Origin: an uncultured Candidatus Saccharibacteria bacterium
GTDB lineage: Bacteria > Patescibacteriota > Minisyncoccia > Phycocordibacterales > UBA9973
Length of the DNA stretch: 59,150 bases
Direction: 5' to 3'
Assembly (NCBI GenBank): GCA_964563715.1
Contig: CAZLXA010000003.1
Span: 1-59,150, forward strand
In this document: piece after piece, positions 8,969 through 52,637 of the stretch
Layout of the letters: every line of letters starts with the position of its first letter
How positions within the stretch are numbered: position 1 is the first letter of the stretch
Notes under the pieces: generated by a model
Told to the model about the DNA's origin: nothing
Databases searched by the model: none
The model's input: the letters and a program-made list of their open reading frames with translations, nothing else
Made by a program: the position numbers and the translations under genes

Positions 8969-8992
8969 CAAAACAAACAAACCCTGAAAAGT

Positions 8993-36347: not shown

Positions 36348-37853
36348 TTATTTCCTTAAAAACAAAGGAGTTTCTGGTTTTTTATTTTGTTTTATTAATT
36401 CTTGAATTTTTAGAGATGTCGCGGGGAGCATTGGCTCTATGGCAAGAGAAGCTTTATATAAATGGAACAATAAGTAATGCACATCTTTCTCGGCTTCTTC
36501 TTTGTTTATTTTAATTTTTTTAAATGGCTCATTTGTTTGAATATATTTATCGAGAGCTCCTAAGCATTCCCAAATCCAATTTATAAATTTATTGATATCA
36601 TAATTTTCTAAATCATCTTTTGGCTCACTAAAATATTTTATATTCATTTCTTCTTCCGATAATTTGACGTCATAATTTACAGCCATGGTCATAATACGAC
36701 TAACTAAATTTCCTAAACCATTTGCGAGTCCTGAATTGTAAGCATCTTTGAATCGCTCAATAGTAAATGGACTATCTTCAAAACTTCCTACTTCACGAAG
36801 AAGAAAATACCTGAGTGCGTCTGTACCATATTCAGAAACTACATCACGAGGGTCAACAACATTGCCGAGTGTTTTCGACATTCTTATTCCACCCTCACCT
36901 GTTATAAAACCATTCACAATTATTTGATGAGAATTGGGTACTCCTGCTGCCATAAGCATGGCTTGCCACATAGCACTTTGGAAGCGAGTATTGTCTTTAC
37001 CGCAATACTGAGTGGGGGTACCATTAACCCAATATTTTTCAAATAAATTTTCAGTATTTGGCCTAAAACCTTCATCAGTAGATGAAGGTTCGGCCGAACT
37101 TGTGCCATTTGCACAAGTTTTAGGCCATCCAAGAGTTGAAATATAATTTACAAGTGCATCAAACCATACATACATAACTTGATTCTCATCACCAGGGACG
37201 GTTATACCCCAAGGCATTTTTTCTTTCAATCGAGAAATTGAAAAATCCTGTAAGCCATTTTTAACAAAATTTTTAATTTCATTTAAGCGAAATTCAGGAA
37301 TAACAAAATTTGGATGCTCGTCGTAGAATCTTAATAATCGATCCCCAAATTCTGAATATTTGAAAAAATAATTCTCTTCATTTATTATTTTAAGCGATAT
37401 TCCGGGATGCTCAGGACAAAAACCATCTACAAGCTCACTATCTGTTTTTTCACTCTCACATCCTACGCAATATTTAGCTTCATAAGTTTTTTTATAAATA
37501 TAACCGTTATCGTTTACCCTCTTCCAAAACTCTTGTGCTGCTTTCTCATGATTCTCATCAGTCGTTCGAATAAAATGTATTATACTTTCATCAACGCCAA
37601 ACATTTTTAATTGTTCTTTAAAAGTTTCAAAACCAAGATCCACAAATTTTTGGGGAGAAAGACCTTGTTCTTTGGCTTTTTCAAATATTTTCATACCATG
37701 CTCATCAGTCCCTGTATTAAAATAAACATCGTACCCAATAAGCTTTTTATATCGAGCAATAGTATCTGCCCGGACAAATTCAAGAGCATGCCCCATGTGA
37801 AGCGGTGCATTTACATAAGGAAGTGTAGTTGTAAGGAAAAAAGGTTTTTTCAT
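36348..37853 (-). CDS. metG: methionyl-tRNA synthetase
   Basis: HIGH-type PLHMGHA and KMSKS-type RMSKTLGN. I prefer the ATG at 37853 (MKKPFFLTT), which abuts the upstream stop codon, over the ORF-track start at 37895. Confidence 0.95.
   Translation of the reverse strand: MKKPFFLTTTLPYVNAPLHMGHALEFVRADTIARYKKLIGYDVYFNTGTDEHGMKIFEKAKEQGLSPQKFVDLGFETFKEQLKMFGVDESIIHFIRTTDENHEKAAQEFWKRVNDNGYIYKKTYEAKYCVGCESEKTDSELVDGFCPEHPGISLKIINEENYFFKYSEFGDRLLRFYDEHPNFVIPEFRLNEIKNFVKNGLQDFSISRLKEKMPWGITVPGDENQVMYVWFDALVNYISTLGWPKTCANGTSSAEPSSTDEGFRPNTENLFEKYWVNGTPTQYCGKDNTRFQSAMWQAMLMAAGVPNSHQIIVNGFITGEGGIRMSKTLGNVVDPRDVVSEYGTDALRYFLLREVGSFEDSPFTIERFKDAYNSGLANGLGNLVSRIMTMAVNYDVKLSEEEMNIKYFSEPKDDLENYDINKFINWIWECLGALDKYIQTNEPFKKIKINKEEAEKDVHYLLFHLYKASLAIEPMLPATSLKIQELIKQNKKPETPLFLRK
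37097..37119. repeat. 9-bp palindrome within an extra loop of metG
   Basis: AACTTGTGC-CATTT-GCACAAGTT flanked by GGCC...GGCC. It encodes part of WPKTCANGTSSAEPSSTDEG. Confidence 0.4.
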
Positions 37854-37854
37854 A

Positions 37855-38922
37855 TTAATCAGTTTTAGAAAGAATCTTTTTCTTTTCCAAATCATCTAAA
37901 AATTCTAATAAACAAACTGCTACTGGAATAGCAAGTATGACTCCCATAAAACCAGCAAGTTCTGCTCCAATAATAATCGACAATATAACAACAAGTGGAG
38001 ATATTCCTATAACTTTTTTAATAATTAATGGGTATATTAAATAATTTTCAAATTGATGAAGAATAAAATATAACCCAAAAGATAATAGTGCCATCGTCAC
38101 TCCACCATCAAGATATCCAAATAAGGTTACAGGCACCATGGCCAAGAAAATACCAAATGGTACAAGCTCACAAAAGGCCGTCAAAATAGCAAGAACAAGT
38201 GAATACTTCACCCCTAAAATCGTAAGCCCCAAATAAGCAAGAATTCCAATAATAAGACCGAGTAACATTTGCCCTTGAACCCAGCGACCAATCTTGTGCT
38301 CTGTGCGTTGCCAAAGATCAATAATATATTCTTCACTTTTTCTTGGAGTAATAATTCTCAAGAAATTTTCTATACCCTTCTCAGTAATAGAAAGATAAAA
38401 TGAAATAATGATGATAAAGAAAAAATTCAAAATTCCACCAAAGGCCCCACTAAAGACATCCATAAATCCACCAGAAAATCCATTGATTAACACTTGGGTA
38501 CTTTTTATAACTTCCCCAATTGAAGCATTGCGAGAAATATCGGAAACTACATCTTTAGCCCCAGTAATAGCATCAGGTTGAAATGAATTTAAAATACTAC
38601 TATTTGGAATATATTGGGAAAGTGATGAAACTAAAGCCGACATTTCTTCAATAAAAATCGGCATGAAAACAGAGAGAAGTCCAATGATAATACTAATTGT
38701 TGTAACATAAATTAAAAATACAGCTAATGATCTATTTTTAATATATGGTTTAATCCTTTTGTAAGCTGATTCAACAAAAGAAGCGATAACAATAGCAATA
38801 AGGATAACGAGCACAACATTATACAATTTTATAATAGCTATAACTAAAACCCCCAAAAGGAGGATTTTTATTAAAGTATTTGTCGAAATACTTATGTGCA
38901 TATTATTTTGTTTGTTTTCCAT
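37855..38922 (-). CDS. AI-2E family (PerM-like) transporter
   Basis: Polytopic membrane protein with the typical AI-2E layout. I prefer the ATG at 38922 (MENKQNN), because the ORF-track start at 38958 is a TTG lying inside a repeat. Confidence 0.75.
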   Translation of the reverse strand: MENKQNNMHISISTNTLIKILLLGVLVIAIIKLYNVVLVILIAIVIASFVESAYKRIKPYIKNRSLAVFLIYVTTISIIIGLLSVFMPIFIEEMSALVSSLSQYIPNSSILNSFQPDAITGAKDVVSDISRNASIGEVIKSTQVLINGFSGGFMDVFSGAFGGILNFFFIIIISFYLSITEKGIENFLRIITPRKSEEYIIDLWQRTEHKIGRWVQGQMLLGLIIGILAYLGLTILGVKYSLVLAILTAFCELVPFGIFLAMVPVTLFGYLDGGVTMALLSFGLYFILHQFENYLIYPLIIKKVIGISPLVVILSIIIGAELAGFMGVILAIPVAVCLLEFLDDLEKKKILSKTD

Positions 38923-38937
38923 TTCTTTATAATAACA

Positions 38938-39038
38938 CCCTGTAGTGAATTTTGCCAATGCATATATAATGCGTAAATTTTCTTAAAATTTACTTTGGCA
39001 AAATCTACTACCGGGAACACCCGGTAGTGAATTTTGCC
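38938..39038. repeat. long GC-cored hairpin (38993-39038) plus an orphan half-copy of one arm (38938-38959)
   Basis: TTGGCAAAATCTACTACCGGG-AACA-CCCGGTAGTGAATTTTGCCAA. The arm GTAGTGAATTTTGCCAA recurs at 38942-38958. Confidence 0.7.
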
Positions 39039-39043
39039 AATAA

Positions 39044-40315
39044 TTAGAATTTTAATATTTTTTTGAATTCTATTTCACTCTTATATGGACCGATAATTGC
39101 GAGATTTAATTTTTCTGTCTGAAAAATAACTTTTGCCATTTTCTGTATATCACTTGAAGTAACACTATTAATTTCTTTTATTTTTTCATCTAAAGTTTTT
39201 ATCTCATTTTTCATCAATTCTTGACCACCATAGAAATTTGCCACATCGTCGGTTGATTCAAGAGACATTTTCATATTTCCAATTAAAAAAGACTTTACTT
39301 TATTTAATTCTCGATCCTCTACTTTATGAATTTTTAAATCATTGCATTCCTTCAAAATCTCCTTCACCACCTCAGCTGTTCTTGTATTATTTACCCCGGC
39401 TGATATTTGAAAACTTCCATAATCAAGTGATGGATCATTGTATGCTCTAACATAATAAGCCACACCCATTTCCTCACGAAGTTTATTAAACAACCGTGAA
39501 CTCATCCCCGCCCCAAGCACAGCCCCCAGTAATGAAATAGTCGTATTTCTTTTATCCATTAAAGGGAAAGTTCTAACTCCTAATACAAAGTGAGTTTGGT
39601 CTGTTTCTTTATACAAAATTTTGACTTTTGGTTTATTTTCGGTGTTTTTAGTTTTTTCTTTCTTTAGACTTTTATTTGAAGGTATATTTTTAAAATATTT
39701 ATCGACTTCTTTATAGACATCATTATTTTTTATATTCCCCGCGACTATAATTACAGTATTTGAAGAAACATAGTGACCAGCTTTATAATTCACAAAATTA
39801 TCTCGAATCATTTTACTGATATTTTCTTTTGGTCCTAAAGTACTACGTCCTGCTGGTTGGTCGCCATAAAGAACTTCACTCCATAAATCTTGAACATGGG
39901 CTTGTGGCATATCTTCATACATATTTATTTCTTCTATAATGACACCTTTTTCTTTTTCCATTTCAGCTTCTGGAAAAGTCGAATTTAAATAAACATCAGA
40001 AACAATATCAAAAATCTGGGCAAAATTTTTAGCATCCCCTTTAGCATAATAACCCGTCATTTGATTCCCGGTAAAAGCATTATATTGACAACCAAGTGCA
40101 TCAAGTTCGTGAGAAATCAATTGAGCATTTGGCCTTTTTTTTGTGCCCTTGAAACACATATGCTCCAAAAAGTGTGATATACCGTTTATTTCTTTCGGCT
40201 CATAATCACTACCAGTACCAACTAAGACAAGGACGGTAACAGTTGGATTGTCTTTCATTGGTATCGTCACGACGCGTAAACCATTTTTATATGTCTTTTT
40301 TTTAGCTTTTATCAT
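39044..40315 (-). CDS. M16-family (pitrilysin-like) zinc peptidase
   Basis: 423 aa, with the inverted zinc motif HFLEHMCFKGT. Confidence 0.9.
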   Translation of the reverse strand: MIKAKKKTYKNGLRVVTIPMKDNPTVTVLVLVGTGSDYEPKEINGISHFLEHMCFKGTKKRPNAQLISHELDALGCQYNAFTGNQMTGYYAKGDAKNFAQIFDIVSDVYLNSTFPEAEMEKEKGVIIEEINMYEDMPQAHVQDLWSEVLYGDQPAGRSTLGPKENISKMIRDNFVNYKAGHYVSSNTVIIVAGNIKNNDVYKEVDKYFKNIPSNKSLKKEKTKNTENKPKVKILYKETDQTHFVLGVRTFPLMDKRNTTISLLGAVLGAGMSSRLFNKLREEMGVAYYVRAYNDPSLDYGSFQISAGVNNTRTAEVVKEILKECNDLKIHKVEDRELNKVKSFLIGNMKMSLESTDDVANFYGGQELMKNEIKTLDEKIKEINSVTSSDIQKMAKVIFQTEKLNLAIIGPYKSEIEFKKILKF

Positions 40316-40409
40316 ATGGTGATATTACCATATTAAATGGTATAAAAAAACTTTGACATTGTATCAGATATGAGATAATCTTGTATTTAAATAACCTAAA
40401 ATAATAATC

Positions 40410-40775
40410 ATGGCTGAAATTCAAGACGAAAAACAGGACGAAATAGTATTGTCCATATCAGAATTACTTGATATGTTAGCATTTGATCCAACGAATCAAG
40501 GAACCAGGGAATCTATCGAGAAAATTATCTCGAAAAATTACGAGCTAAAACCTTTAGTTAGGTTTAATAAATCATTGAAAAATTTGGAAAAGGAATTATC
40601 TTCTCAGGAGTCGATAGATACAGTTGAGTCTGCTAGGACTTGTGCTCTGCAAATTATCGAGAATTTTGGTGATTTTAACCCTATTCTTACAATTCGTGAT
40701 GTTGAGATTATCGTCAACCATCAAATTGGAACAGCAAAAAAATTAATGACAATTAATGCTTTTAAAAAAAGTTAG
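40410..40775 (+). CDS. hypothetical protein, 121 aa
   Basis: ORF with a plausible TTGACA-17-TAATCT promoter upstream and a terminator downstream. No recognised motif. Confidence 0.5.
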   Translation: MAEIQDEKQDEIVLSISELLDMLAFDPTNQGTRESIEKIISKNYELKPLVRFNKSLKNLEKELSSQESIDTVESARTCALQIIENFGDFNPILTIRDVEIIVNHQIGTAKKLMTINAFKKS

Positions 40776-40777
40776 TA

Positions 40778-40806
40778 AAACAGCAGGCTTGTCCTGCTTT
40801 TTTTAT
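40778..40806. terminator. intrinsic terminator between convergent genes
   Basis: AGCAGG-CTTGT-CCTGCT-TTTTTTT. Confidence 0.75.
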
Positions 40807-41060
40807 TTATATATATCATGTGTCCCGATAGCATGAAAATGTACCAAATCCCCATCTATAAATGTAAAACCGATACGATAATTATAAGAAATAGAGAATG
40901 CCCAATATTCTTTCATTGTGCCGTGAAGTTTGTGAGTTTTTAATTTTGGGTCAAATGGATTTTTACGAAATAATTTCTCACACAATAAAGCATTTTCTTT
41001 TACATCTTTCGGTAATTTCTTAAACTGCTTTTGAAACTTAGGAGAATATTCTATTTCCAT
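40803..41060 (-). CDS. RelE/YafQ-family type II toxin (mRNA interferase)
   Basis: 85 aa. Motifs FKKLPKDVKE, LKTHKLHGTMKEYWAFSISYNYRIGF and HAIGTHD. Sits 3 nt downstream of a ribbon-helix-helix gene. Confidence 0.8.
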   Translation of the reverse strand: MEIEYSPKFQKQFKKLPKDVKENALLCEKLFRKNPFDPKLKTHKLHGTMKEYWAFSISYNYRIGFTFIDGDLVHFHAIGTHDIYK

Positions 41061-41063
41061 ATA

Positions 41064-41279
41064 TTACATTAAATCTTTTAGAGAGTGTAGCTTCTTTCCT
41101 TTTCCAAGGGAAAACTCTCTTTCACTTTCCATAATATTCTTTATTAAAATATCTTCTTCAAGTGAGCGCATAGCATCACGAAAAAGTTCACTCGTTGAAG
41201 CATAATTACTCTCTTTCATAATATTATCCATCCTCTTCTTCAAAGAAGGTGGAATTGATATTGACATAATATTTCTCAT
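41064..41279 (-). CDS. ribbon-helix-helix antitoxin
   Basis: 71 aa. SISIPPSLKKRMDNIMKESNYASTSELFRDAMRSL fits an RHH fold. Confidence 0.75.
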   Translation of the reverse strand: MRNIMSISIPPSLKKRMDNIMKESNYASTSELFRDAMRSLEEDILIKNIMESEREFSLGKGKKLHSLKDLM

Positions 41280-41286
41280 ATTTAAA

Positions 41287-41307
41287 GTGTATTACATTGT
41301 AATACAC
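41287..41307. promoter_or_regulatory. palindromic operator candidate of the TA operon
   Basis: GTGTATTAC-ATT-GTAATACAC, 8 nt upstream of the antitoxin start codon. Confidence 0.5.
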
Positions 41308-41322
41308 AAGTCAATCCCCTTT

Positions 41323-42702
41323 TTAATTCATTCTTTCTTTTATATAATCGGCTATTTCTTCTTTTTTGATACGGACTTGTTCACCAGTGTCGCGGTCACG
41401 AATAGTAACAGAGTCGTCAGTTAGAGTATCAAAATCGATAACTATACACCAAGGTGTACCAATTTCATCTTGCCTACGGTAACGTTTACCAATATTACCA
41501 TTGTCATCCCATGCTACCCAGCCAAATTCTTTTTTTAATTCTCCAAAAACATTCCTTGCATAAGAAACAAGCTCAGGTTTATTTTTCAAAAGTGGTGAGA
41601 CACACACTTTATATGGAGCGATAGCTGGCGGAATTTTTAAATAAACACGGACATTATCTCCTTCCCCACTTTCTCGATACACGGAGCACAAAAGTGCTAG
41701 TATGGCTCTATCAACACTTATAGTAGGTTCAATAACATGTGGAATAAATTTTTCAGCAGTTTGCTCATTTAGCATTTCCATCGATTCACCAGAAAATTCC
41801 TGGTGTCTCTTTAAATCATAATCACCCCGATGTGAAAGCCCCGTTAATTCTTTTGTGCCAAAAGGATATTCAAATTCTAAGTCAACTGTCTTTCGACTAT
41901 AATGCGCTCGAGCCGTATCTGGATGCTCTAGTGGATGAAGTTTGGAAACATCAACACCTATTTTAGAAAGCCAATCTTTTTGTTCTAATAAAAAATTATC
42001 AAAAAAAGCTTCCCATGGATCGTTGGGGTGAATAAAATATTCAAATTCCATTATTTCGAATTCTCTTAATCGATAAATAAAATCTCGAGGTGTAATCTCA
42101 TTTCGAAAAGCTTTACCAATCTGAGCAATCCCAAAAGGAATTTTAGGAGACAACGATTGTAAAACATTTTTAAAACAAACAAACATACTTTGAGCTTCTT
42201 CGGGTCGGAGATAAGTTTTTATTGAAGATTCTTCAACTGCCCCCATTTTCGTCTCGAGCATTAAATTAAAAGTGCGAACCTCAGAAAGTGGATTGCCATC
42301 AGGACTTTTAAGCTTTAACTCTTTAATTTTAATGTCCATTTCATCAATCGTTAATTTCTCAGAATTTACTCCGGCCTCTTCCAGTAAATGGTCTGCTCGA
42401 TAACGCTTTTTTGTCACAAGATCATCAACAAGTGGGTCAATAAATTCGCTAGTATGACCCGAGGCATCCCAAACCCTTGGGTGCATTAAAATAGGTGTAT
42501 CGATTAAATAAATATTCTCTCGACTTCGGACAAAATAATTAATCCAAGATTCCTCGATATTTTTTTTCAACAATGACCCTAATGGCCCGTAATCATATGT
42601 TCCAGCTAAACCACCATAAATTTCTGAACCCGGATATATAAAACCTCTTCTTTTACAAAGTGAAATAATTTTATCCATCAATTTTTCGTCTTTTTCAGGC
42701 AT
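41323..42702 (-). CDS. glyQS: glycyl-tRNA synthetase (dimeric class II GlyQS type)
   Basis: 459 aa, with N-terminus MDKIISLCKRRGFIYPGSEIYGGLAGTYDYGPLGSLLKKNI. Confidence 0.95.
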   Translation of the reverse strand: MPEKDEKLMDKIISLCKRRGFIYPGSEIYGGLAGTYDYGPLGSLLKKNIEESWINYFVRSRENIYLIDTPILMHPRVWDASGHTSEFIDPLVDDLVTKKRYRADHLLEEAGVNSEKLTIDEMDIKIKELKLKSPDGNPLSEVRTFNLMLETKMGAVEESSIKTYLRPEEAQSMFVCFKNVLQSLSPKIPFGIAQIGKAFRNEITPRDFIYRLREFEIMEFEYFIHPNDPWEAFFDNFLLEQKDWLSKIGVDVSKLHPLEHPDTARAHYSRKTVDLEFEYPFGTKELTGLSHRGDYDLKRHQEFSGESMEMLNEQTAEKFIPHVIEPTISVDRAILALLCSVYRESGEGDNVRVYLKIPPAIAPYKVCVSPLLKNKPELVSYARNVFGELKKEFGWVAWDDNGNIGKRYRRQDEIGTPWCIVIDFDTLTDDSVTIRDRDTGEQVRIKKEEIADYIKERMN

Positions 42703-42727
42703 TTTATTTTAATTTTTATTTATAATT

Positions 42728-42755
42728 GGTAATTCGTAATTCGTAATTCGTAATT
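42728..42755. repeat. four tandem heptamers [G/C]GTAATT in the spacer upstream of glyQS
   Basis: ggtaatt cgtaatt cgtaatt cgtaatt. Confidence 0.8.
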
Positions 42756-44655
42756 ATTTTATCACTTGTCCATTCCCTGGTGTAAAATTTGGGTCATTAT
42801 ATAATGTAGTTGTAATCGAATTATGTTTACTATTTATCGTCGTATTTGTAAATGAATCAACCCCTGTAAGAAAAACATCTTTCATTAATTGTGGGACACT
42901 TCCAACTTGAGAAAGTGATGGTTTGAGAGCTATAACAAAAGAAATTTCTCGGTTTGAACTAATTCCAGTATTGGGTACTACCTGGCCAATATTCCAAACA
43001 ACTTCGCGAGTCACATCGTTATAAGATAGATTATCATTTGTTCCAACTGCTAACCCTACCCATTTAACATATACAGGTAATGCTGAACGAGCAGTTGCCC
43101 CGGTTATACTATTGGCAGAATTTGATAGTGTCCAGGTCACAATGTATTTTGTTTCAGTTTCGGCTTTAGGTGGCATATTACCAGTCAAATACACGGCTGA
43201 TGAGGCAATTTGGAAATCTGAAACAACCTTAACTACTTTTTCTGAAAAATTATTTATATCGTTATATGTCGAACCAAAAAGTGGCTCACGACCCTTGATG
43301 CTAACCTTAATTGAAACTTGGGGATTTTTAATAGTTGATAAACCAATGAGAGAAGTAGGCACAAAACTAAATGAGACTGTCCCATCTTCACCAGGATTAA
43401 TTTCCGATAATTCAGACATAGAATTTCTGTCCCAAATTATTTGATTATTCGCAGAATCATAAAAACCGTTCGTAGCTTTGACGGTATTTTTATCAAAAAC
43501 ATTTCCAGACAAATTAACGATTATTTGTCCATCTGTCACTCGAGTGGTTAAATTATTAGCCCAAGCGATTTCCACATTAACGGTTTTCCCTCCTGAGACT
43601 GCATACTCTTTCTGGTCACGACTATCAACTAAGATTTTTGCTTCTAAAAATGGTTTAGTAATTAATATTTTATGTAAAACCGAACTATAGACAACTCCAA
43701 CTTGTGATTGATTTGTTCCATTTGTTGTTCCGGCATAAGCATGAAATACTTGTTCTTCATTATCCTCCCCAACTAAACGCCCCCGTACTTCAATCATGAT
43801 TGGATTCTCTTCCGTTATCGTCGACAAATCCCAAATTGAATTTCCAACAATAGGAGCTGGTAATGCTTCATCAAAGACGAAATTATTTGGATAAGTCATT
43901 TGTAAAATCGGATTTTCTTCAGGTAATGAGGTATTTAATGTGGTGGTAACTTTAAATACAACAGGCTGATTTGAAGTAGTAGTATTTGGAGCTTCAAGAT
44001 TAATCGAAAGTGGTGCAATACTTATCGTAACTGGATAAAATTTATCTTTCGTAAAAATAGCATTAGACCCTTCAGGGTGATACTCTAAACTAACCTTAAT
44101 GTTACGGATTGACTTCTCTTGACCATAAAGTTTAACTTTAACATTACGCATCACCGTTTCTCCAGATTTAATGGTGCCGATTGGATCTTTTGGCAAGCGA
44201 ACAACTTCCAGGGTATTATCTTCAGCTCCCTTTGGATACTCAACAATTAAATTTGTAAACTCTAAACTAGCCGTATTATTATTTGTTATTTCAATTTGGA
44301 GTGGCAATTCTTCTCCCCCTTTGGTAAAAGCACTACCAATAACTTCTATATTTATTTTCTGACCCGAGACTGAAGTATCATTATAATAAAATTTATAAAA
44401 AGCAAAACCTACTGCGGCCAAGAAAAAAATAACCGAGATAAGAAAAAATTTTTTAAAGACTGAAACTGGTGGTTTTTTAAATTTATGATTCATATCAGTA
44501 TTTTCTTTTAGCTGACTATCTTCTTTCCATTTATCATTAAAATCGTGGTCTACTCTATGTAATATACCTTCTCTTTGATGACTTATATCCTTTTCGTTCG
44601 GGTCATAAAGATTCATTTTAACATCTTCGATTTTATTTTTTTCACCTTCTTTCAT
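42754..44655 (-). CDS. membrane-anchored extracytoplasmic protein, function unknown (beta-rich)
   Basis: 633 aa. Charged N-terminus, then one TM helix FFLISVIFFLAAVGFAFY, then a long beta-strand-like sequence. Confidence 0.65.
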   Translation of the reverse strand: MKEGEKNKIEDVKMNLYDPNEKDISHQREGILHRVDHDFNDKWKEDSQLKENTDMNHKFKKPPVSVFKKFFLISVIFFLAAVGFAFYKFYYNDTSVSGQKINIEVIGSAFTKGGEELPLQIEITNNNTASLEFTNLIVEYPKGAEDNTLEVVRLPKDPIGTIKSGETVMRNVKVKLYGQEKSIRNIKVSLEYHPEGSNAIFTKDKFYPVTISIAPLSINLEAPNTTTSNQPVVFKVTTTLNTSLPEENPILQMTYPNNFVFDEALPAPIVGNSIWDLSTITEENPIMIEVRGRLVGEDNEEQVFHAYAGTTNGTNQSQVGVVYSSVLHKILITKPFLEAKILVDSRDQKEYAVSGGKTVNVEIAWANNLTTRVTDGQIIVNLSGNVFDKNTVKATNGFYDSANNQIIWDRNSMSELSEINPGEDGTVSFSFVPTSLIGLSTIKNPQVSIKVSIKGREPLFGSTYNDINNFSEKVVKVVSDFQIASSAVYLTGNMPPKAETETKYIVTWTLSNSANSITGATARSALPVYVKWVGLAVGTNDNLSYNDVTREVVWNIGQVVPNTGISSNREISFVIALKPSLSQVGSVPQLMKDVFLTGVDSFTNTTINSKHNSITTTLYNDPNFTPGNGQVIK

Positions 44656-44677
44656 TTATATAGTATAACACAAAAAA

Positions 44678-45277
44678 TTATAATTGACTCTCAGTTAGGG
44701 CTTTATTTATATGGGCAACTATAGACTGTCGTTCACTTAAAAGAAGCTCTGTTTTGTCTTCATTAAATGAGGACCCCAAATATTTCGCCAATATATCTGA
44801 ATCGCCAATATATCCAAGACTATTCATTATACGAAGTACTAAGTGTAACTCAAGAGCTTCGCGAGATTTTGATTCTAGGCTTTCAATATCAAGTATATAC
44901 AGAGCCTGAATAAAATCATCAAAAATATCTTCACTTGGACCCTCCCCATTACAAAGTCTTTCAAGTAAACTACTCACTCTAGTCATCAGTAAAAGTGATT
45001 GCGAACTTGCTCGTGCCAACGGAAATGATGTTATATGTTTAGCTGATGTTACTCGCCACATTTCTTTACCACGAACAAGATCGACATTCACATACGAAAA
45101 ATCCTGAAGTGTAAAACGGAGTTTTGATTTATGTAACCGAATCCCCTGCGCCGCTGCTCGAACCAGCCCCATCTCTCTGGTATAAATCGTCAACATCTTA
45201 TTCGCCTCACCTCGATTGCGAGATGAAAGTATAAATCCATGTGTGTGGTGAATGTGGTGCATATTATTAATCTTCAC
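44678..45277 (-). CDS. recO: DNA repair protein RecO (short)
   Basis: 199 aa, with OB-fold region GFILSSRNRGEANKMLTIYTREMGLVRAAAQGIR. Confidence 0.8.
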   Translation of the reverse strand: MKINNMHHIHHTHGFILSSRNRGEANKMLTIYTREMGLVRAAAQGIRLHKSKLRFTLQDFSYVNVDLVRGKEMWRVTSAKHITSFPLARASSQSLLLMTRVSSLLERLCNGEGPSEDIFDDFIQALYILDIESLESKSREALELHLVLRIMNSLGYIGDSDILAKYLGSSFNEDKTELLLSERQSIVAHINKALTESQL

Positions 45278-45833
45278 TAGATAGTCTATTTAATAACTCG
45301 TTAATTAATTTATATTGACTACTTAATTCATTTTTTGAAACCTCAAGACTTAATGCATTCCATTTTTCTTCAACTTTATTATTTAACAACTTTATCAAAT
45401 CCTCAAATGGCATGTCTCTCAAATATCTCATAGCATATGAAAAGCCTTTAATAGAAATAAACCTATAACAATCCGCATTACAACAAATCTCAGATTCTAT
45501 AGAATAGAATTTCGTTACTCCATGATGTTCTAATATACAATTTCTTATGTTTTCCTTATCATTCTCCGAAAGAGTAGATTTATTCAATAACTCATTTACT
45601 TTTTCTAAAGACATCTCAATATGCTCACTAGAACGGTTTTCTTTTAAGGCTTGCCCTATTAAACAATCCATAAGTAGTGTCCCTGCTTCAACAATCTCTA
45701 TACTAGCTCCCAATTATTTAGCTAACTTCTTTGCTGTTTCTACCGCTAAATCAACATGTAATTTAACTGGCATTCCTGTTTTTTTCACCTCACTATATGC
45801 TAATTTTCTTGCTTCAATTAAAAAATTTTTCAT
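45267..45833 (-). pseudogene. HD-domain-like gene interrupted by one in-frame TAA
   Basis: The ATG at 45833 opens MKNFLIEARKLAYSEVKKTGMPVKLHVDLAVETAKKLAK. A TAA at 45716..45714 follows. The same frame then continues as LGASIEIVEAGTLLMDCLIG...ILEHHG to 45267. Confidence 0.55.
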
Positions 45834-45836
45834 AAT

Positions 45837-46421
45837 TTATTCTGTAATTTTCAAAACAATATCTAATAATTCTGGAAGTTGATAACAAATCGGTTCTGCT
45901 AAAATGAAAAAGTGTCCACCTTTTTCAACTTTAACAAGTTCACAATCAAGACTATTTGAAATTATTTCTGCATGAGAAAATGGTACGGCCGGATCATCAG
46001 TACTATGTAGAACAATAAATTTTTGTGTTTTATTTTTTACTTCATTAAAATTTATTGTTGGTACAACAAAAGAATCAATTAGACGGTAATTACTATTTAT
46101 ATTATCGGGTTCTAATGGACTAACTAATCCGGAAACCAAAACAGCACCAGATATTTTTTTATTTTCTTTTATAAATTCAAGATATTTCAATACTGCTGTA
46201 GCTCCAAGACTGTGCCCAACTAGAAATATCTCATCTTCTGGTGAATTATCCAAAGCAAAAGAAATTTCTTCTATCCATTTTGAGACAACTGGTTTTTTTG
46301 ATTCTGGCATAGGTAAAGCACAAGCATAAATTTTCTTTTTTGCTAACTCTTCCATCAACCAAGGAATCCATCCTCCATTAGGTATTCCGCCAAATCCATG
46401 AACAATAAATACTTTTTTCAT
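45837..46421 (-). CDS. alpha/beta-fold serine hydrolase (YdeN/RBBP9-like)
   Basis: 194 aa, with nucleophile elbow VGHSLG and a late HS.DD/GGH. Confidence 0.8.
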   Translation of the reverse strand: MKKVFIVHGFGGIPNGGWIPWLMEELAKKKIYACALPMPESKKPVVSKWIEEISFALDNSPEDEIFLVGHSLGATAVLKYLEFIKENKKISGAVLVSGLVSPLEPDNINSNYRLIDSFVVPTINFNEVKNKTQKFIVLHSTDDPAVPFSHAEIISNSLDCELVKVEKGGHFFILAEPICYQLPELLDIVLKITE

Positions 46422-46447
46422 AATCCTATTTTATCACATTTTTTATA

Positions 46448-49400
46448 CTATTTCTCAATTAGTATCTTAAACACAAATTCATCGATTTTTATTTCTTGAC
46501 CATCGTTTTCTTTAATAAATATATCTTTTGCTCCGATAGATTTCATAAATTCTTTCTCATCGAAAGTATTTATTAATTCTTGGCCATCTACACCTGTCTC
46601 AATAAGTAAATTAATTATATCATTTGGATTCAACCCATTCTTTTTTCTCATATCCTGTATAGCTCGTAGAAGTTCTCGGTATTGACCCTCTTGTTTTAGC
46701 TCAGGTGTGATATCAGGATTCAACTCAATTTTTTCTGAAATAAAATTATCAGTGATGATCATTTTAATATTCAACTCGTCTTTTATAATTTTTGTATATT
46801 CTTTATCTAAATCATAATCTCTAACTTTTATACCAATAAGGGGCTGACGAACGGCAATACCAGCTTTTTGCCTTTCTTTTAATCCGAGTGATACAATCTC
46901 GCGGGCTTGTTTCATTTCATCAATAACTTTCACATCAATATTATCTATTTTGATATCTAAAAAGAAATCGGTCAGATGAACACTGATAGGGTCAGATGGA
47001 AATCTTATTTTATTCCAAATTTCTTCTGCCACAAATGGCATAAATGGGGCAAAAAGCTGAGCAGTTACTTTTATAACAAAATATAATGTATGTTTTGCTT
47101 CTTCATCCCCTTCTTTTAATCGATCACGAGAACGACGTAAATACCATGTGGAAAGATCTTCAATAAATAAATCAAAGGGCTTTGTTGCTTGAGCTAAATC
47201 ATAAGATTCCATTCCGTTTTTAACATCGAGCACAAATTGCGAGATCCGAGCAAGTATCCATCGGTCTAGAATATTTTTGCTTAATACTTGTTGCTCACTA
47301 CTTTCTACTTCCTTGTCTCTATATAATTCATAAAAAGAAACAACATTATCAAATCTATTAATTATTTTACTTGATACTTCTTGAACAAGTTTTTCTGAAA
47401 AATTTACATCTTCACCCTTCATCAAAGTACTTGAAATTAAATAAAAACGAAGAGCATCAACACCATATTTATCAAATAAAACCCATGGATCTGGATAATT
47501 ATTTTTAGATTTAGACATTTTACTTCCATCTTCAGCTAAAACTGTCCCTGTTGTAACTACGTTTTCAAAAGGGGCTTTACCAAAAAGAATTGTCGAAATA
47601 GCATGAGTATAGTAAAACCAAGTTCTGGTTTGAGCTATATATTCAGCAACAAAGCCAGCAGGAAAATTATTCTTTTGCCAATTCAAGTTTTCAAAAGGAA
47701 AATGATCTTGAGCAAAAGGCATCGAGCCTGATTCAAACCAACAGTCTATAACTTCTGGAATTCTCTTGTATTCTTCTTTATTTTCATCTAAAAGAATAAT
47801 TGAATCAATATAGGGCCGGTGCAAATCGAACTTATAATCTCCAGTATGTGGTAATGGGACGAAAGGTAATTCAATAAAATCCCCATTACTAACATAATTG
47901 AAATTTTTCTCGTTTTTTACTATTCCAAGAGATTCTTCTGTACTTAACATATTTACATCTGAAAACATTTGCCAAACAGGACTACCATGAGTAACCACAA
48001 GAATATTTTTATCTTCGTATTTTTTTTCTATATCATATAAAAAACTCATTGACCTGCGTCTAACATCTTCATAGGATTCATTCCCGTCTGGTGCGTAATA
48101 AAAATTCTCAACCGTCTTAGCGAATGCGTCATGATATTCTTTCCATTTTTTCCCTTCATACATTGGGACAGACATTTCATGAAGCCTATCATCAAAAACA
48201 ATTTTTTCTTTCTCATAACCTATTTTTTCAGCAATCAATTCTGCTGTTTCTCGTGTTCTTATAAAAGGAGAAGATATTATGTAATCAATTTTTTTATTTA
48301 TTAATTCTCGTGCAGATTTTTCAACTTGTTCTATCCCCTTCGCAGTTAGGTGATCATCATTGTTTACAGTCGAACTCACTTCACCACGCACATTACACTC
48401 TGTCTCGCCATGGCGCATGACAAAATATTTATTCCCAGATTTTTTAGTTTTTGATTTTAAATCTTCAACCGAATTTACCATCATTACCTTTCCATTTTTA
48501 TTCTTCCAAATTGGAAGAGGGCTGGCCCAATAGCGATTTCTAGAAATAGTCCAATCAGGAGCATTCTCCATTGTATGTTTAAACCGTCCTTCTTTTAAAT
48601 GGCTAGGAATCCAATTCATATCTTCACCTTTTGCAAGTAAATCATTTTTAACTTTCTGAATATTCACAAACCACGAAGGGAGAGCATAGTATAGAAGTGG
48701 TGTCTCACAACGGTAACAATGTGGGTAGGAGTGAATAATTTTTTCTTTAGCAAAAAGACTCCCAGCATGAGCAAGATACTTAATAATTAAAATATCGGTT
48801 GACTGATGATCTTCTTTTGATTTTGCTTTAACGTTTGGAAAATCTACTACCTCTTTAGAAAAATCACCATTAGGCTCCACGTGTCGAATAAAAGGGATAT
48901 TATGCTCTTTAGCTAAATTCATATCATCTTCTCCAAAAGCTGGAGCTTCATGAGCAATCCCTGTTCCTTTATCTAGAGTCACGAATGGAGCATGCCAAAC
49001 TTTCCAAATATTTTCTTTATTAGGCATGTCGATATTTTTATAATAATTAAATACTGGCTCATATGAAAGGCCCACAAGCTCATTTCCAGATACTTCTTTT
49101 AATATTTTTCCATCATTAAATTTATCTTTTAATGTTTCAAATAAATCATTTACAACAATAAGTATTTCTTTCCCGGCATCTGTTTTATTTTCAACAAAAA
49201 GATATTTTAATTCTTTATTAATTGCAATCGCTGTATTACCCGGGAGAGTCCATGGTGTTGTTGTCCACGCAAGCAAATAGGTATCTTTATATTGTTCATT
49301 TATAATTTTAAATTTTACATAAACAGAAATATCGGTAATATCCTTATAAGAATTATCCATGGCAATTTCAGAATTTGCTATTGGGGTTTCGCATCGAGGG

Positions 49401-49942
49401 CAATAAGCAAGAACTCTAACACCTTCATAAAGTAAACCTTTTTTATTCATCTCCCCGAGCGCCCACCAAACACTTTCAATAAAAGTGTTATCCATTGTCA
49501 TATAAGAATTATCAAAATCAACCCAACGTCCCATACGATCAATAGTTTTTTTCCACTCTCCGACATATTTAAGAACCTTGCTTCGAGCATGTTCAGTAAA
49601 TTTATCAATTCCTAATTCTTCAATTGCTTTTTTTCCGGAAATACCCAATTCTTTCTCAACAATATTTTCAATCGGCAAACCATGGCAATCCCAACCCCAA
49701 CGTCGTGGGACATTATATCCACTCATAGTTTTATATCTACCAATTACATCCTTAACAGTACTTCCAAGAATATGCCCATAATGTGGTAATCCTGTCGCAA
49801 AAGGAGGACCATCATAAAAAACATACTCCCCTTTGGGTGAATCCTTTTCTAAACTCTTTTTGAAAATGTCGTTTTCTTTCCAAAATTTTAAAACCTCTTC
49901 TTCTCGAAGTGCACTATTTGTTTTTTGGGTTTTTTCTTCCAT
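46448..49942 (-). CDS. ileS: isoleucyl-tRNA synthetase carrying an inserted histidine-phosphatase (PGAM-like) domain
   Basis: 1164 aa. HIGH-type PHYGHILG. CP1 editing motif TTPWTLPGNTAIA. KMSKS is present. The insert at about aa 505-700 contains FVMRHGETECN, SSPFIRTRETAE and VVTHGSPV. Confidence 0.95.
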   Translation of the reverse strand: MEEKTQKTNSALREEEVLKFWKENDIFKKSLEKDSPKGEYVFYDGPPFATGLPHYGHILGSTVKDVIGRYKTMSGYNVPRRWGWDCHGLPIENIVEKELGISGKKAIEELGIDKFTEHARSKVLKYVGEWKKTIDRMGRWVDFDNSYMTMDNTFIESVWWALGEMNKKGLLYEGVRVLAYCPRCETPIANSEIAMDNSYKDITDISVYVKFKIINEQYKDTYLLAWTTTPWTLPGNTAIAINKELKYLFVENKTDAGKEILIVVNDLFETLKDKFNDGKILKEVSGNELVGLSYEPVFNYYKNIDMPNKENIWKVWHAPFVTLDKGTGIAHEAPAFGEDDMNLAKEHNIPFIRHVEPNGDFSKEVVDFPNVKAKSKEDHQSTDILIIKYLAHAGSLFAKEKIIHSYPHCYRCETPLLYYALPSWFVNIQKVKNDLLAKGEDMNWIPSHLKEGRFKHTMENAPDWTISRNRYWASPLPIWKNKNGKVMMVNSVEDLKSKTKKSGNKYFVMRHGETECNVRGEVSSTVNNDDHLTAKGIEQVEKSARELINKKIDYIISSPFIRTRETAELIAEKIGYEKEKIVFDDRLHEMSVPMYEGKKWKEYHDAFAKTVENFYYAPDGNESYEDVRRRSMSFLYDIEKKYEDKNILVVTHGSPVWQMFSDVNMLSTEESLGIVKNEKNFNYVSNGDFIELPFVPLPHTGDYKFDLHRPYIDSIILLDENKEEYKRIPEVIDCWFESGSMPFAQDHFPFENLNWQKNNFPAGFVAEYIAQTRTWFYYTHAISTILFGKAPFENVVTTGTVLAEDGSKMSKSKNNYPDPWVLFDKYGVDALRFYLISSTLMKGEDVNFSEKLVQEVSSKIINRFDNVVSFYELYRDKEVESSEQQVLSKNILDRWILARISQFVLDVKNGMESYDLAQATKPFDLFIEDLSTWYLRRSRDRLKEGDEEAKHTLYFVIKVTAQLFAPFMPFVAEEIWNKIRFPSDPISVHLTDFFLDIKIDNIDVKVIDEMKQAREIVSLGLKERQKAGIAVRQPLIGIKVRDYDLDKEYTKIIKDELNIKMIITDNFISEKIELNPDITPELKQEGQYRELLRAIQDMRKKNGLNPNDIINLLIETGVDGQELINTFDEKEFMKSIGAKDIFIKENDGQEIKIDEFVFKILIEK

Positions 49943-49959
49943 ATATTAATAAATTAAAT

Positions 49960-50095
49960 TTATAAAGTTAATGCTTGATAATAATTTCTCGAGTGAGCCA
50001 CCGCGGAAGCTGTCGAGCTGAGCAATGAGGAAATTTCTAGTAAGAAATTATCCGTTGGCGAATCCGAGAATATTTTTATAAAGCATTTTGCTTTA
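49960..50095 (-). other. unexplained structured, GC-enriched segment between the T-box terminator and the ileS start
   Basis: On the minus strand the closing helix is UUCUCG/CGAGAA. Internal hairpins are GGAUAAUUUCU-UACU-AGAAAUUUCC and AGCU-CGAC-AGCU. GCCA pairs with UGGC. Confidence 0.35.
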
Positions 50096-50330
50096 TAAAT
50101 AAAAAACTCGTCCCCGTACAACAATTAAAATAATTGCTATACAAGGACGAGTTTCTCTCGTGGTACCACCTTGATTACTTCTCATTTAATAGGGTTCTAC
50201 TCATTTATTTGGTCCGCCAACGGCGAGATAAACTTTCTTCCCAATGCCTGTCCGAAATAAATACCTGTATTTACGTCGGGCTCTAGGGTGATAACCCTTT
50301 CACTGCATATACTTTAAGAATACTATAAAA
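50095..50330 (-). promoter_or_regulatory. T-box riboswitch leader of ileS
   Basis: The minus strand carries AATCAAGGTGGTACCACGAG (50176..50156), matching the T-box consensus AAnnnGGGUGGUACCGCG. It is followed by the terminator ACTCGTCCTT...CGGGGACGAGT-TTTTT. Confidence 0.85.
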
Positions 50331-50373
50331 TCACAAAATTGCAAGAAATATTATTTTGTTGTAATATCTAATC

Positions 50374-50616
50374 GAATTGCACTTTTGTGACGTCCAAAAG
50401 GAAATCGCCTTCGAAGTCAACGCGAAACAGGCTTCATAGGAGGTCGTGAAAATTAGAATAGTGAAGAAGTTATTCTAATTTCATTTAGATTTCAGCAACT
50501 CAATGCTTTGGATTGATCGTCAGCGAAAGCAAGTCCTAATAGGGCGAAAAGATGGCGTTCATAAAACCAAAGCAGAAAGCCCTCTACAAAATCTTCGGAT
50601 GCGTGAGGGCTTTTTA
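50374..50616 (+). ncRNA. promoter- and terminator-delimited ~240-nt non-coding RNA candidate, class unknown (6S-like size for the paired core)
   Basis: Promoter TTGCAA (50339-50344)-17 nt-TAATAT (50362-50367). Terminator AGCCCUC...GAGGGCU-UUUUU (50578-50615) with an inner UUCG hairpin. A perfect 10-bp hairpin AATTAGAATA/TATTCTAATT sits at 50451-50482. UUUUGUGACGUCC (50384-96) pairs at long range with GGCGUUCAUAAAA (50554-66). Confidence 0.45.
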
Positions 50617-50643
50617 TTATGTTTCCTTACTAATTTCTACTTG

Positions 50644-50895
50644 CTACTTATTTTTAATCCAAGATTTTTTTATTATAGGGATTGATTGAGTAGATAAAAT
50701 AAATCCAAGTACTGGAATTATGGAACTTAAATATGGTTTATTGGCCCCAATACTATATAAAGCAAAAAATGCCGCCACATAAGTAATCACACTAATAGAC
50801 AAAATTCTAACAAAACTCGTCTCCCATGCCTTATCGAGTTCTACTCTTTTATTTCTTTCTTCAATTTTATTTAATCTTTCTTCTATTATTTCCAT
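50644..50895 (-). CDS. small two-TM membrane protein
   Basis: 83 aa. A charged N-terminal helix is followed by two hydrophobic segments. The gene is 5 nt downstream of argS. Confidence 0.6.
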   Translation of the reverse strand: MEIIEERLNKIEERNKRVELDKAWETSFVRILSISVITYVAAFFALYSIGANKPYLSSIIPVLGFILSTQSIPIIKKSWIKNK

Positions 50896-50900
50896 AAATC

Positions 50901-52637
50901 CTACATTTTTTCTGGTGTTTCAATACCAAGCAACCAAAGACCGTTTTTCATTGTTTGATAAAATGCTTTAATTAATTCAAGGTGATAACTCACATACTTA
51001 TTTTCATCATCAAGGATTTTTGTATTTCCATAAAAATTATTAAAAGAGCTTGCAAGTTGGGTTAGATAAGTTGCGATATGATGTGGTTGTAATGTCTCGT
51101 ATGAACGCTCTACAATTTCTGGAAATTGATAAATCAATTTTTCTAAATCTGTCGTCTCTAGATTAGTTTCTAGCGAAGAGGTTCTAGTTTCTAGTTTAAA
51201 TTCTTTGGATTTTTCTAAAATCGAATTGGCACGAACAGCAGTATATTGTAGATACGGACCTGAATCTCCATCAAAAGAAATTGATTTCTCAAAATCATAA
51301 ACTATATCACTTCCAAGTGATGAACGAAGTATAGAATATTTAAGTGCCGCCACACCAACAATTTCAGATATTTTCTTTTTTTCTTCATCCGAAAAATCTC
51401 TGTCTTTTACTTTCTCAAGGACAATATCCATTGAGTCACGTAATAATGACTCCCCTGTTATAACATTACCTTTTCGTGAGGACATCTTACCTGTGGCAAG
51501 ACGCATCATCCCATGAGTAATGTGCTTCATTCTACTTTCCAAATCTGGATGCATAAGTGAGATAGCTTTCTGAACAACTTTCATATACTCAGCTTGCTCA
51601 ATCGCTGTCGTAACAATAGAAATATCTGGATTTTCTTTTTCGAATTTCGTCATGGTTAGACCGATCTCTTTTGTCTCATAAGTTGGTAGTCCTTGAGAAT
51701 TTATAAATACACGAGTGTGAAGCTTTTTATCATAATTCTCCCCATGAAAAACTATTGCTCCGGCTGATTCTTCAAATACATTACCCGTATTCCCCCGGAC
51801 AACCTTCTCCCCCTTTACGGCCATTTCACTCTCAAAAAAATAGTGATCAAATTTTGTACCTAGAAGTTTGTATATTCCCTCAAATGCCTCTAGTGTTATC
51901 TTTCTTCCCCAATCATAAATTTTATTTATTTCATCATCAGACTTATCATAGATTTTTTTATTAATTTCATCTATTTTTTTCTTGGCATTTTCATCGTTAT
52001 CATACAAATTGCTTCCTTTGGAATAACACTCACCCATGTATTGAGCCAATTCATTATAGGAAGTCCGACTTCCTATCTTTGGAAGTCCGACTTCCAAAGA
52101 TTCTTTTGAATTTAAAATTGAATATATAGCTTTAGCAACATGAGGGCCAACGTCACCTTGGTAATTTGCCCGAACAGTTTTAGCACCAGAAAATTCAACA
52201 ATTCGAGAAATGGATTCCCCTATCGCATTACTCATTAAATGACCAATATGAAAAGGCTTAAATGGATTTGGCTGAGTATATTCAACCATCACTTTTTTAC
52301 CAGTTAGTATTTCATTTTTTCCCCAATTTTCTTTTTTATTTAAAATTTCATTTATACTTTTTGTAAAAAATTCTCGTGATAAATAAAAGTTTATAAACCC
52401 AGCACCGGCGACTTCAACCTTTTCAATTTCTTTTATTAAATTCTTTTCAATTTCTTTTTTAATAGTTTCTGCTAATTCTTTAGGATTTTTACCAAACTTT
52501 TTAGCACATACCATCGCTACATTCGTAGAGTAATCTCCATTCACAAAACTCTCAGGATGTTCAACAGAAAAAGAAACATCTTCCATCCCAAGATTTTTTA
52601 GAGCATTTTGTATTTGTTTCTTGATTTCTTCTTTCAT
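50901..52637 (-). CDS. argS: arginyl-tRNA synthetase
   Basis: 578 aa. HIGH-type NPFKPFHIGHL. MSSRKGN. C-terminal anticodon-binding (DALR-like) domain. Confidence 0.95.
   Translation of the reverse strand: MKEEIKKQIQNALKNLGMEDVSFSVEHPESFVNGDYSTNVAMVCAKKFGKNPKELAETIKKEIEKNLIKEIEKVEVAGAGFINFYLSREFFTKSINEILNKKENWGKNEILTGKKVMVEYTQPNPFKPFHIGHLMSNAIGESISRIVEFSGAKTVRANYQGDVGPHVAKAIYSILNSKESLEVGLPKIGSRTSYNELAQYMGECYSKGSNLYDNDENAKKKIDEINKKIYDKSDDEINKIYDWGRKITLEAFEGIYKLLGTKFDHYFFESEMAVKGEKVVRGNTGNVFEESAGAIVFHGENYDKKLHTRVFINSQGLPTYETKEIGLTMTKFEKENPDISIVTTAIEQAEYMKVVQKAISLMHPDLESRMKHITHGMMRLATGKMSSRKGNVITGESLLRDSMDIVLEKVKDRDFSDEEKKKISEIVGVAALKYSILRSSLGSDIVYDFEKSISFDGDSGPYLQYTAVRANSILEKSKEFKLETRTSSLETNLETTDLEKLIYQFPEIVERSYETLQPHHIATYLTQLASSFNNFYGNTKILDDENKYVSYHLELIKAFYQTMKNGLWLLGIETPEKM
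51160..51203. repeat. CTAGAAAC-type heptamer repeats inside the argS CDS
   Basis: The coding strand reads AAACTAGAAACTAGAACC...GCTAGAAACTAATCTAGAG, translated KLETRTSSLETNLETT. The same AAACTAGAAACTAGAA string lies in the spacer at 53418-53434. Confidence 0.65.
52059..52101. repeat. family A palindrome in argS: full 27-nt copy (52075-52101) plus a 15-nt core copy GGAAGTCCGACTTCC (52059-52073)
   Basis: The 27-mer is identical to tatD 34669-34695. The two units are read in different frames and give SLEVGLPKIGSRTSY. Confidence 0.9.

Follow-up and report, generated by a model that had tools for sequence, protein, structure and literature searches.

The 59,150-nucleotide stretch of DNA studied here (hereafter the window: positions 1 to 59,150 of the forward strand of contig CAZLXA010000003.1, GenBank assembly GCA_964563715.1, from an uncultured Candidatus Saccharibacteria bacterium of the Patescibacteriota) contains an ileS gene whose product, an isoleucyl-tRNA synthetase (IleRS), carries a histidine-phosphatase domain inside its catalytic domain. 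An earlier note, made from the letters of the window, had already proposed a histidine-phosphatase (phosphoglycerate mutase-like) domain within the IleRS core, and the Pfam search confirms this: a match to His_Phos_1 splits the tRNA-synt_1 match in two. Judging by its sequence, the gene product is best explained as a working type-2 IleRS with an inserted phosphatase, and the protein as a combination of three hydrolytic or synthetic sites, namely aminoacylation, CP1 editing and a predicted phosphatase. The continuous reading frame of 1164 amino acids (aa) given in the earlier note was recovered as such. The gene and the parts of its product are the following, all on the minus strand:

46448..49942 (end including the stop codon), minus strand: ileS, coding for a 1164-aa type-2 IleRS with an embedded phosphatase (open reading frame, TIGR00392, Pfam)
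48494..49942, minus strand: IleRS residues 1-483, comprising the first Rossmann half, the CP1 editing domain and the strand DWTISRNRYW...PIW (8c8v alignment, motifs)
49772..49783, minus strand: HYGH motif, residues 54-57 (motif reading)
47849..48493, minus strand: insert, residues 484-698, made up of a linker, the histidine-phosphatase domain and a second linker (delimited against 8c8v and insert-less Patescibacteria IleRSs)
47951..48424, minus strand: Pfam His_Phos_1 (PF00300) match, residues 507-664 (E = 2.3e-34, 119.2 bits)
48410..48415, minus strand: codons of R510-H511 in the RHG motif, H511 being the predicted phospho-accepting nucleophile (conservation)
48257..48259, minus strand: codon of R562, the second phosphate-binding arginine (conservation)
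48176..48178, minus strand: codon of E589, the predicted general acid/base (conservation)
47987..47989, minus strand: codon of H652, the second catalytic histidine (conservation)
46451..47848, minus strand: IleRS residues 699-1164, comprising the DLHRPYID...CWFESG strand, KMSKS, the anticodon-binding domain and the type-2 C-terminal domain (Pfam, 8c8v alignment, motifs)
47507..47521, minus strand: KMSKS motif, residues 808-812 (motif reading)

The protein scores 846 bits against the IleRS equivalog model TIGR00392, whose cut-off is 621.4, and its Pfam matches on the synthetase side are tRNA-synt_1 (E = 3e-131, in two stretches), Anticodon_1 and DUF5915. The last of these corresponds to the type-2 C-terminal domain, and the type-2 affiliation is also found in comparisons with solved structures, where the best matches are the IleRS2 structure 8c8v (E = 3.7e-211) and cytoplasmic IleRSs, while the type-1 enzyme 1ffy matches at 5e-88 only. 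The class I motifs HYGH and KMSKS are intact, and so are the editing motifs WTTTPWT (residues 226-232) and GTGIAH (326-331). The insert is preceded by DWTISRNRYW (463-472) and followed by DLHRPYID (706-713) and CWFESGSMPFAQ (734-745). The models of the mupirocin-resistance enzymes MupA and MupB (NF000257 and NF000258) give 665 and 685 bits, below their cut-off of 1900. The AlphaFold model of the full-length protein has a mean predicted local distance difference test score (pLDDT) of 83.6 and a predicted template modelling score (pTM) of 0.73.

The His_Phos_1 match is highly significant (119.2 bits against a cut-off of 21.7) and covers profile positions 2-159 of 194. The motifs quoted in the earlier note are present, with RHGE at residues 510-513, SSPFIRTRETAE around R562 and VTHG at 650-653, and together with E589 they make up the complete residue set of branch 1 of the histidine-phosphatase superfamily (R510-H511-G512, R562, E589, H652), which is near-invariant both in the carriers of the insert and in free-standing relatives. 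Among 120 close homologues, R510, H511, R562 and H652 are conserved in 100% of the sequences and E589 in 99%. The same residues are retained by distant carriers (n = 41, insert identity 27-44%), in which R510 is found in 41/41, H511 in 40/41, R562 in 42/42, E589 in 40/42 and H652 in 42/42; R510-H511 is also invariant in the free-standing relatives. These residues thus hardly vary in some 160 carriers, yet no part of the protein evolves faster than the insert, whose mean pairwise identity among the 120 close homologues is 44%, against 80-86% for the Rossmann core. Catalytic residues that hardly vary while the rest of the domain drifts are the signature of selection on catalysis. The possibility of a degenerate linker was rejected, since the Arg-His-Arg-Glu-His set is kept across relatives.

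The modelled structure agrees with an autonomous domain, as the earlier note had suggested checking: the insert is the most confident region of the full-length AlphaFold model (pLDDT 85-96), and it reaches a pLDDT of 94.9 and a pTM of 0.92 when modelled alone. Its closest solved relatives, by sequence as well as by fold, are PspA, PhoE, GpgP, CobC and TIGAR, whereas true mutases rank below them; Foldseek retrieves PhoE, PspA and GpgP at E values of about 1e-12, and the small phosphatases have template modelling scores of 0.67-0.73. Nevertheless, the insert misses the cut-off of every NCBIfam phosphatase or mutase equivalog, including those for dPGM (NF038349, 91.3 bits versus 225), PspA (NF045917, 64.4 versus 350) and CobC (TIGR03162, 83.4 versus 162.9). 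The region that forms the substrate-specificity cap is present in most carriers, but its conservation is low and some of them lack part of it. A true phosphoglycerate mutase was rejected on account of the missed equivalog cut-offs and of the phosphatases that make up the closest relatives. Of the "phosphatase or mutase" of the earlier note, the first half therefore stands and the second does not. From the residue set and the models, we conclude that the insert is a complete domain of about 190 aa, predicted to be catalytically competent and of the phosphatase-type branch 1 represented by PhoE, PspA and CobC.

The alignment with 8c8v delimits the insert to residues 484-698, close to the position of 47830-48430 proposed before: residues 3-483 of the query correspond to residues 3-461 of the chain and residues 699-1065 to 480-850, so that about 215 residues of the window protein stand where 8c8v has about 18, which form a zinc-knuckle loop. 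The segment between W.ISR and WFESG measures 78 aa in insert-less Patescibacteria IleRSs, 274-276 aa in the embedded forms and 276 aa here, that is, a net insertion of about 197 aa, in keeping with the roughly 200 extra residues that had been estimated. The 78-aa segment of the insert-less forms includes a zinc knuckle of the pattern CxxC...CxxC (or CxC), and in many distant carriers a pair of cysteines is retained on each side of the insert. Because of these flanking cysteines, and because the insert-less forms hold their knuckle at the same place, the alignments locate the phosphatase domain in the zinc-knuckle loop, in the second half of the Rossmann fold. All four zinc-ligand cysteines have been lost in the clade of the window, where knuckle cysteine pairs are found in 0/120 proteins, and the domain appears to have taken over the structural role of the knuckle in this lineage. 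The model is confident in the linkers as well, and these contain conserved stretches such as KKSGN at residues 500-504.

The architecture is not peculiar to the window; it is lineage-wide. The 120 closest full-length IleRS clusters (120/120; 61-79% identity, 1144-1232 aa) all carry PF00300 internally, and the survey of relatives revealed neither misassembly nor decay to a linker. Several carriers lie on contigs longer than 200 kb, complete genomes such as CP179887 are found among them, one has been in UniProt since the groundwater genomes of 2015, and more distant IleRS fragments bear the same insert. Intact carriers were found only with a full-length query, the first homology search having returned only proteins shorter than 600 aa, apparently an effect of length. 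There is practically no chance that the architecture is an artefact, in the form of a misassembly or chimeric join of two genes: the frame is continuous, the GC content across the insert (0.29-0.34) equals that of the flanking sequence and the same arrangement recurs in hundreds of independent assemblies. This explanation was consequently rejected, given the closest clusters, the long contigs and the complete genomes. Two insert-bearing IleRS fragments, on contigs of about 1.2 kb, are assigned outside the Patescibacteria, to Sedimentisphaerales (P0038) and Methylomirabilis (P0049), assignments that may reflect binning errors.

An exhaustive search with the insert alone mostly retrieved IleRSs bearing the domain at about residues 480-710, but also free-standing proteins of about 190 aa (34-43% identity). 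Their genes are located immediately upstream of insert-less ileS genes (972-984 aa), with a spacing of 1-2 nucleotides (nt) in loci L006-L010, and belong to a conserved block with the order argS-[phosphatase]-ileS-recO-(protein of about 550-630 aa)-class II aminoacyl-tRNA synthetase. The upstream neighbour of ileS in the window fits this block:

50901..52637, minus strand: argS, 578 aa, without phosphatase domain, upstream neighbour of ileS (Pfam; synteny in L001, L006, L009 and L093)

Examples of the free form are L040, L075 and the complete genome CP179888. A scan of species-representative genomes matched 348 loci, 80 of which were classified at the level of open reading frames (ORFs); as the scan used a narrow phosphatase alignment, these 80 are biased towards the free-standing clade. 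The phosphatase is a free gene directly upstream of ileS in 44/80 loci (14 of them also directly after argS, and two with tandem phosphatase genes, L038 6022..7173 and L077 6022..7174), it is embedded in ileS in 22/80, and the remaining 14/80 have a free gene without an ileS seen downstream, at least three of these lying at contig ends. The free gene is found away from ileS in about 10 loci, and it often starts 14-130 nt past argS. The free and embedded domains are collinear and share the same invariant residues, and their comparison revealed no conserved residues specific to the embedded forms that could mark a new interface.

Synteny and similarity suggest that the embedded domain descends from the free-standing gene whose place ahead of ileS is conserved in related Patescibacteria. 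The embedded state would be the derived one, because the knuckle is kept beside the free gene and because IleRSs elsewhere lack the insert. In that case, the free upstream gene would have become embedded and then fixed in the lineage of the window, the four zinc-ligand cysteines being lost subsequently. A plausible route, which is our own interpretation, would be that the phosphatase-ileS unit was duplicated in tandem and then underwent two in-frame deletions. The neighbour-joining tree of the phosphatase domains is star-like and weakly resolved. A decayed free copy in the 700-bp argS-ileS gap of the window was also considered, and a fully sensitive six-frame profile search found none. Other small genes occur in this neighbourhood. 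The ileS-recO interval seems to gather small hydrolase genes: NUDIX, HAD-phosphatase and Ser-hydrolase genes lie there in L094 (6650..8305), and a Ser-hydrolase gene in the window (45837..46421). A conserved ORF of 83 aa without Pfam match lies between argS and the leader of ileS in the window (50644..50895, minus strand), and one of the same length occupies the same place in the closest relative (L093 2481..2732).

The association between the two activities takes further forms in IleRSs from other metagenomes, which bear two to four histidine-phosphatase domains (P0328, P0336, P0326, P0364, P0253). The additional copies are found between the downstream block and KMSKS (P0336, P0364) or between KMSKS and the anticodon domain (P0328, P0326, P0336), and P0253 has a phosphatase upstream of the main site together with tandem copies, four in all. 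The genes of P0328 (L091 1932..6191) and P0336 (L092 4034..8173) are complete and lie inside their contigs, and the catalytic set is kept in every copy of the multi-copy IleRSs. A phosphatase is also joined directly past the canonical C-terminus of ArgRS in 3/120 of the closest ArgRS clusters (P0374, L001 10001..12070; P0383; P0384, L002 8001..10163), the other 117/120 being without it. In L001, recO comes after the ArgRS fusion with no ileS in between. The domains fused to ArgRS fall among free-standing genes at two places of the weakly resolved tree. The idea that these fusions are remnants of a deleted ileS is not supported, as their domains group with free genes and the free gene is often near argS. 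A simpler origin, with which their places in the tree are consistent, would be the read-through of adjacent genes.

A candidate regulatory element lies in the ORF-free stretch upstream of ileS in the window:

50101..50312, minus strand: T-box leader-like element (Rfam RF00230, direct sequence reading)

Its RF00230 score is below the gathering score (41.8 bits versus 93), with E = 8e-08 over the full span of the model. An ultrashort Stem I, GGG-UUAUCA-CCC, presents an AUC-A specifier (50292..50289), that is, an isoleucine codon followed by the conserved purine; the T-box core with its UGGN bulge reads AGGUGGUACCACG, and an intrinsic terminator (50101..50151) is formed by CUCGUCC/GGACGAG followed by U6. 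The closest relative has the same element, with a compensatory change in a stem (L093, about 2760..2960). The core motif is present only in the window and L093 and is absent from all 80 scanned loci and from L094 and L095; a T-box ahead of the free phosphatase-ileS operons, which would have indicated co-regulation by uncharged tRNA-Ile, was thus not found in these loci. In this narrow clade, the leader makes it probable that the IleRS-phosphatase is induced by uncharged tRNA-Ile. The literature search returned no paper linking T-boxes to Patescibacteria.

As to function, we favour a phosphatase that is tethered to the synthetase, mechanistically independent of tRNA charging and active on a small diffusible phosphorylated substrate, a proposal to which we give about even chances; it is plausible, too, that the phosphatase is coupled to tRNA charging. 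Judging by the fold and the residues conserved, a terminal phosphoryl group of the substrate would be bound by R510, R562 and H652, H511 would attack it to form a phospho-histidine intermediate, and E589 would protonate the leaving group and then activate water. Co-expression and physical tethering would link both activities without an obligatory shared mechanism, and the embedded phosphatase should be able to work independently because its free-standing relatives must do so. Independence is also favoured by the lack of embedded-specific residues, the roughly 10 free genes away from ileS, the metabolite phosphatases among the relatives, the origin of the ArgRS fusions from a free gene beside argS and the other small hydrolase genes of the ileS-recO interval. 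Several observations weigh against it, however, and fit a coupling better. The link with ileS is persistent (among the loci that could be judged, 66 are adjacent or embedded, as opposed to about 10 that are not), an internal insertion is no simple read-through accident, two to four intact copies occur in other lineages, at three more sites of IleRS in the vicinity of KMSKS, and the linkers combine confident models with local conservation. Besides, the tree of the domains is poorly resolved, so that the number and direction of the transfer events are inferred only. One form of coupling would be a repair of tRNA ends, in which the phosphatase removes a 2'- or 3'-phosphate or a pyrophosphate from the CCA end of tRNA-Ile and restores its charging; the domain would be a third acceptor-end site beside the synthetic and editing sites, and the synthetase would restore and charge its own substrate. 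The persistent linkage and the insertion within the Rossmann fold speak for such a role, as do the extra intact copies flanking the KMSKS region and the boundary to the anticodon domain, and the presence of the domain in ArgRS, a second class I synthetase. Phosphorylated CCA ends do occur in nature and block charging, toxSAS toxins being known to pyrophosphorylate tRNA 3' ends with this effect (10.1101/2021.04.30.441581; PMC11559606). The ileS of the window lies behind a T-box-like leader that would read the free 3' end of uncharged tRNA-Ile, and the variability of the cap, partly deleted in some carriers, is also compatible with this role. Nevertheless, we know of no member of the histidine-phosphatase superfamily that acts on RNA ends, which counts against the proposal, and a literature search pairing the name of the superfamily with "aminoacyl-tRNA" returned nothing relevant. 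All the close structural relatives are small-molecule enzymes, the embedded domains are slightly acidic on average and have neither a conserved basic patch nor residues of their own, free forms exist away from ileS, the ArgRS fusions resemble a read-through of adjacent genes at the end of the anticodon domain, and a repair limited to one tRNA species is hard to rationalise. Taken together, tRNA-end repair seems unlikely, and slightly more so in the specific version of a third tRNA-directed site of IleRS that would clear a blocking CCA-end phosphate left, for instance, by a toxin or nuclease. Were it true, the activity would be the first RNA-end phosphatase of its superfamily and a new kind of quality control of aminoacylation.

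Alternatively, the phosphatase could hydrolyse pyrophosphate, or another nucleotide-derived product of the activation step, beside the KMSKS loop, which would pull the formation of Ile-AMP forward and possibly replace a missing soluble pyrophosphatase. All the insertion sites do cluster in the second Rossmann half, the KMSKS region and the boundary to the anticodon domain. Were the substrate diffusible, it would be clear how the domain can function whether free, fused or embedded, and what use additional copies could have; the apparent lack of a pyrophosphatase gene from the 59 kb of the window adds very weakly to this. Yet the closest branch-1 members are phosphomonoesterases and there is no obvious reason why such a function would be needed in IleRS alone and, rarely, in ArgRS, so that this possibility appears as doubtful as the repair of tRNA ends. 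HipA-type kinases inactivate other synthetases, and SixA, PGAM5 and Sts are members of the superfamily directed at proteins. By analogy, the domain might undo a phosphorylation that inhibits IleRS itself or a partner protein, and its tethering near the ATP-binding half of the catalytic domain and its variable or dispensable cap would be compatible with such a target; but the conserved gene neighbourhood showed no kinase, the nearest relatives of the domain dephosphorylate metabolites and the cap is present in most carriers, which leaves this explanation improbable. Still less credit can be given to a purely structural module, a scaffold or tRNA-binding element that took the place of the zinc knuckle and whose catalysis does not matter. 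The clade of the window has indeed lost all four zinc-ligand cysteines flanking the insert and the linkers are modelled as rigid, but R510, H511, R562, E589 and H652 are near-invariant over a deep divergence during which the domain drifts.

Each component of this protein is familiar, and so is the acquisition of accessory domains by synthetases. PhoE of Bacillus stearothermophilus (1h2e/1ebb), PspA of Hydrogenobacter thermophilus (4ij5), the mycobacterial GpgP (4qih) and the CobC alpha-ribazole phosphatase (6nru) have the same fold, about 190-210 aa and the same Arg-His...Arg...Glu...His set as the insert; unlike it, they are free-standing metabolite phosphatases with known substrates, and their identity to the insert is 20-27%. 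The synthetase domains of IleRS2 of Priestia megaterium (8c8u/8c8v) and of the Thermus thermophilus IleRS (1ile) align end to end with those of the window IleRS, but their zinc-knuckle loop, about 18 residues long, is replaced in the window protein by a phosphatase insert of 215 residues, and the knuckle cysteines are lost there. The CP1 editing domain follows the same design of an autonomous hydrolytic domain within the Rossmann fold of a synthetase. Nevertheless, CP1, which differs in fold and acts by hydrolysis on mischarged aminoacyl-tRNA, occurs in all IleRSs, ValRSs and LeuRSs, whereas the phosphatase insert is lineage-specific and occupies another position. The mycobacterial RNase H/acid phosphatase (PRK07238, Rv2228c type) also joins a CobC-like phosphatase to a nucleic-acid enzyme, and its model is the top NCBIfam phosphatase model for the insert (92 bits, far below the cut-off of 326); in that case, however, the phosphatase is fused end to end with RNase H, in contrast to the internal insertion of the window IleRS. 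A precedent for an accessory catalytic module in IleRS is provided by NF040702, an IleRS with an N-acetyltransferase domain, on which no paper was found in the literature; its extra domain is a GNAT and not a phosphatase, and the window protein scores 334 against its cut-off of 1999. The earlier note's remark that no IleRS of this architecture had been described holds for the literature, as a full-text search found no paper on a synthetase-histidine phosphatase architecture or on the pairing of a phosphatase with ileS in an operon, but insert-bearing proteins are already deposited in UniProt and NCBI, where their automatically assigned names include "class I tRNA ligase family protein".

Few enzymes have been studied as thoroughly as the aminoacyl-tRNA synthetases, and time and again the domains that they acquired have revealed new functions such as editing, tRNA binding and signalling. 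Here, an intact phosphatase is tied to IleRS over hundreds of Patescibacteria species, as an operon partner, a single insertion, multiple insertions and, occasionally, a fusion to ArgRS. This persistence suggests an unrecognised phosphate-removing step tied to translation in symbionts with minimal genomes. Even if the two activities are independent, the series would be a natural example of how an adjacent gene becomes an internal domain of an essential enzyme, in this case in replacement of a zinc knuckle. The split form is carried by a named organism, Candidatus Microsyncoccus archaeolyticus (L040), which may ease experiments.

The window has some other features of interest. A segment of about 17 kb (36348..52637) contains four aminoacyl-tRNA synthetase genes, namely a MetRS-like gene (36348..37895), a class II synthetase gene (41323..42702) and those of IleRS and ArgRS. 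A bifunctional Rel/SpoT homologue with HD_4, RelA_SpoT and TGS domains is encoded at 5444..6910 (plus strand), and its presence implies that this reduced genome keeps (p)ppGpp metabolism. A 2564-aa ORF (26521..34215, minus strand) has Peptidase_S74, an endosialidase chaperone domain, as its sole Pfam match (about residues 2312-2380), and its product is probably a large surface or fibre protein. Finally, a 272-aa ORF with a LAGLIDADG_3 homing-endonuclease-like domain (8104..8922, plus strand) overlaps by about 37 nt the start of a tRNA-Tyr gene (8886..8969, plus strand), which is matched by ARAGORN and has no Rfam match at the gathering score.

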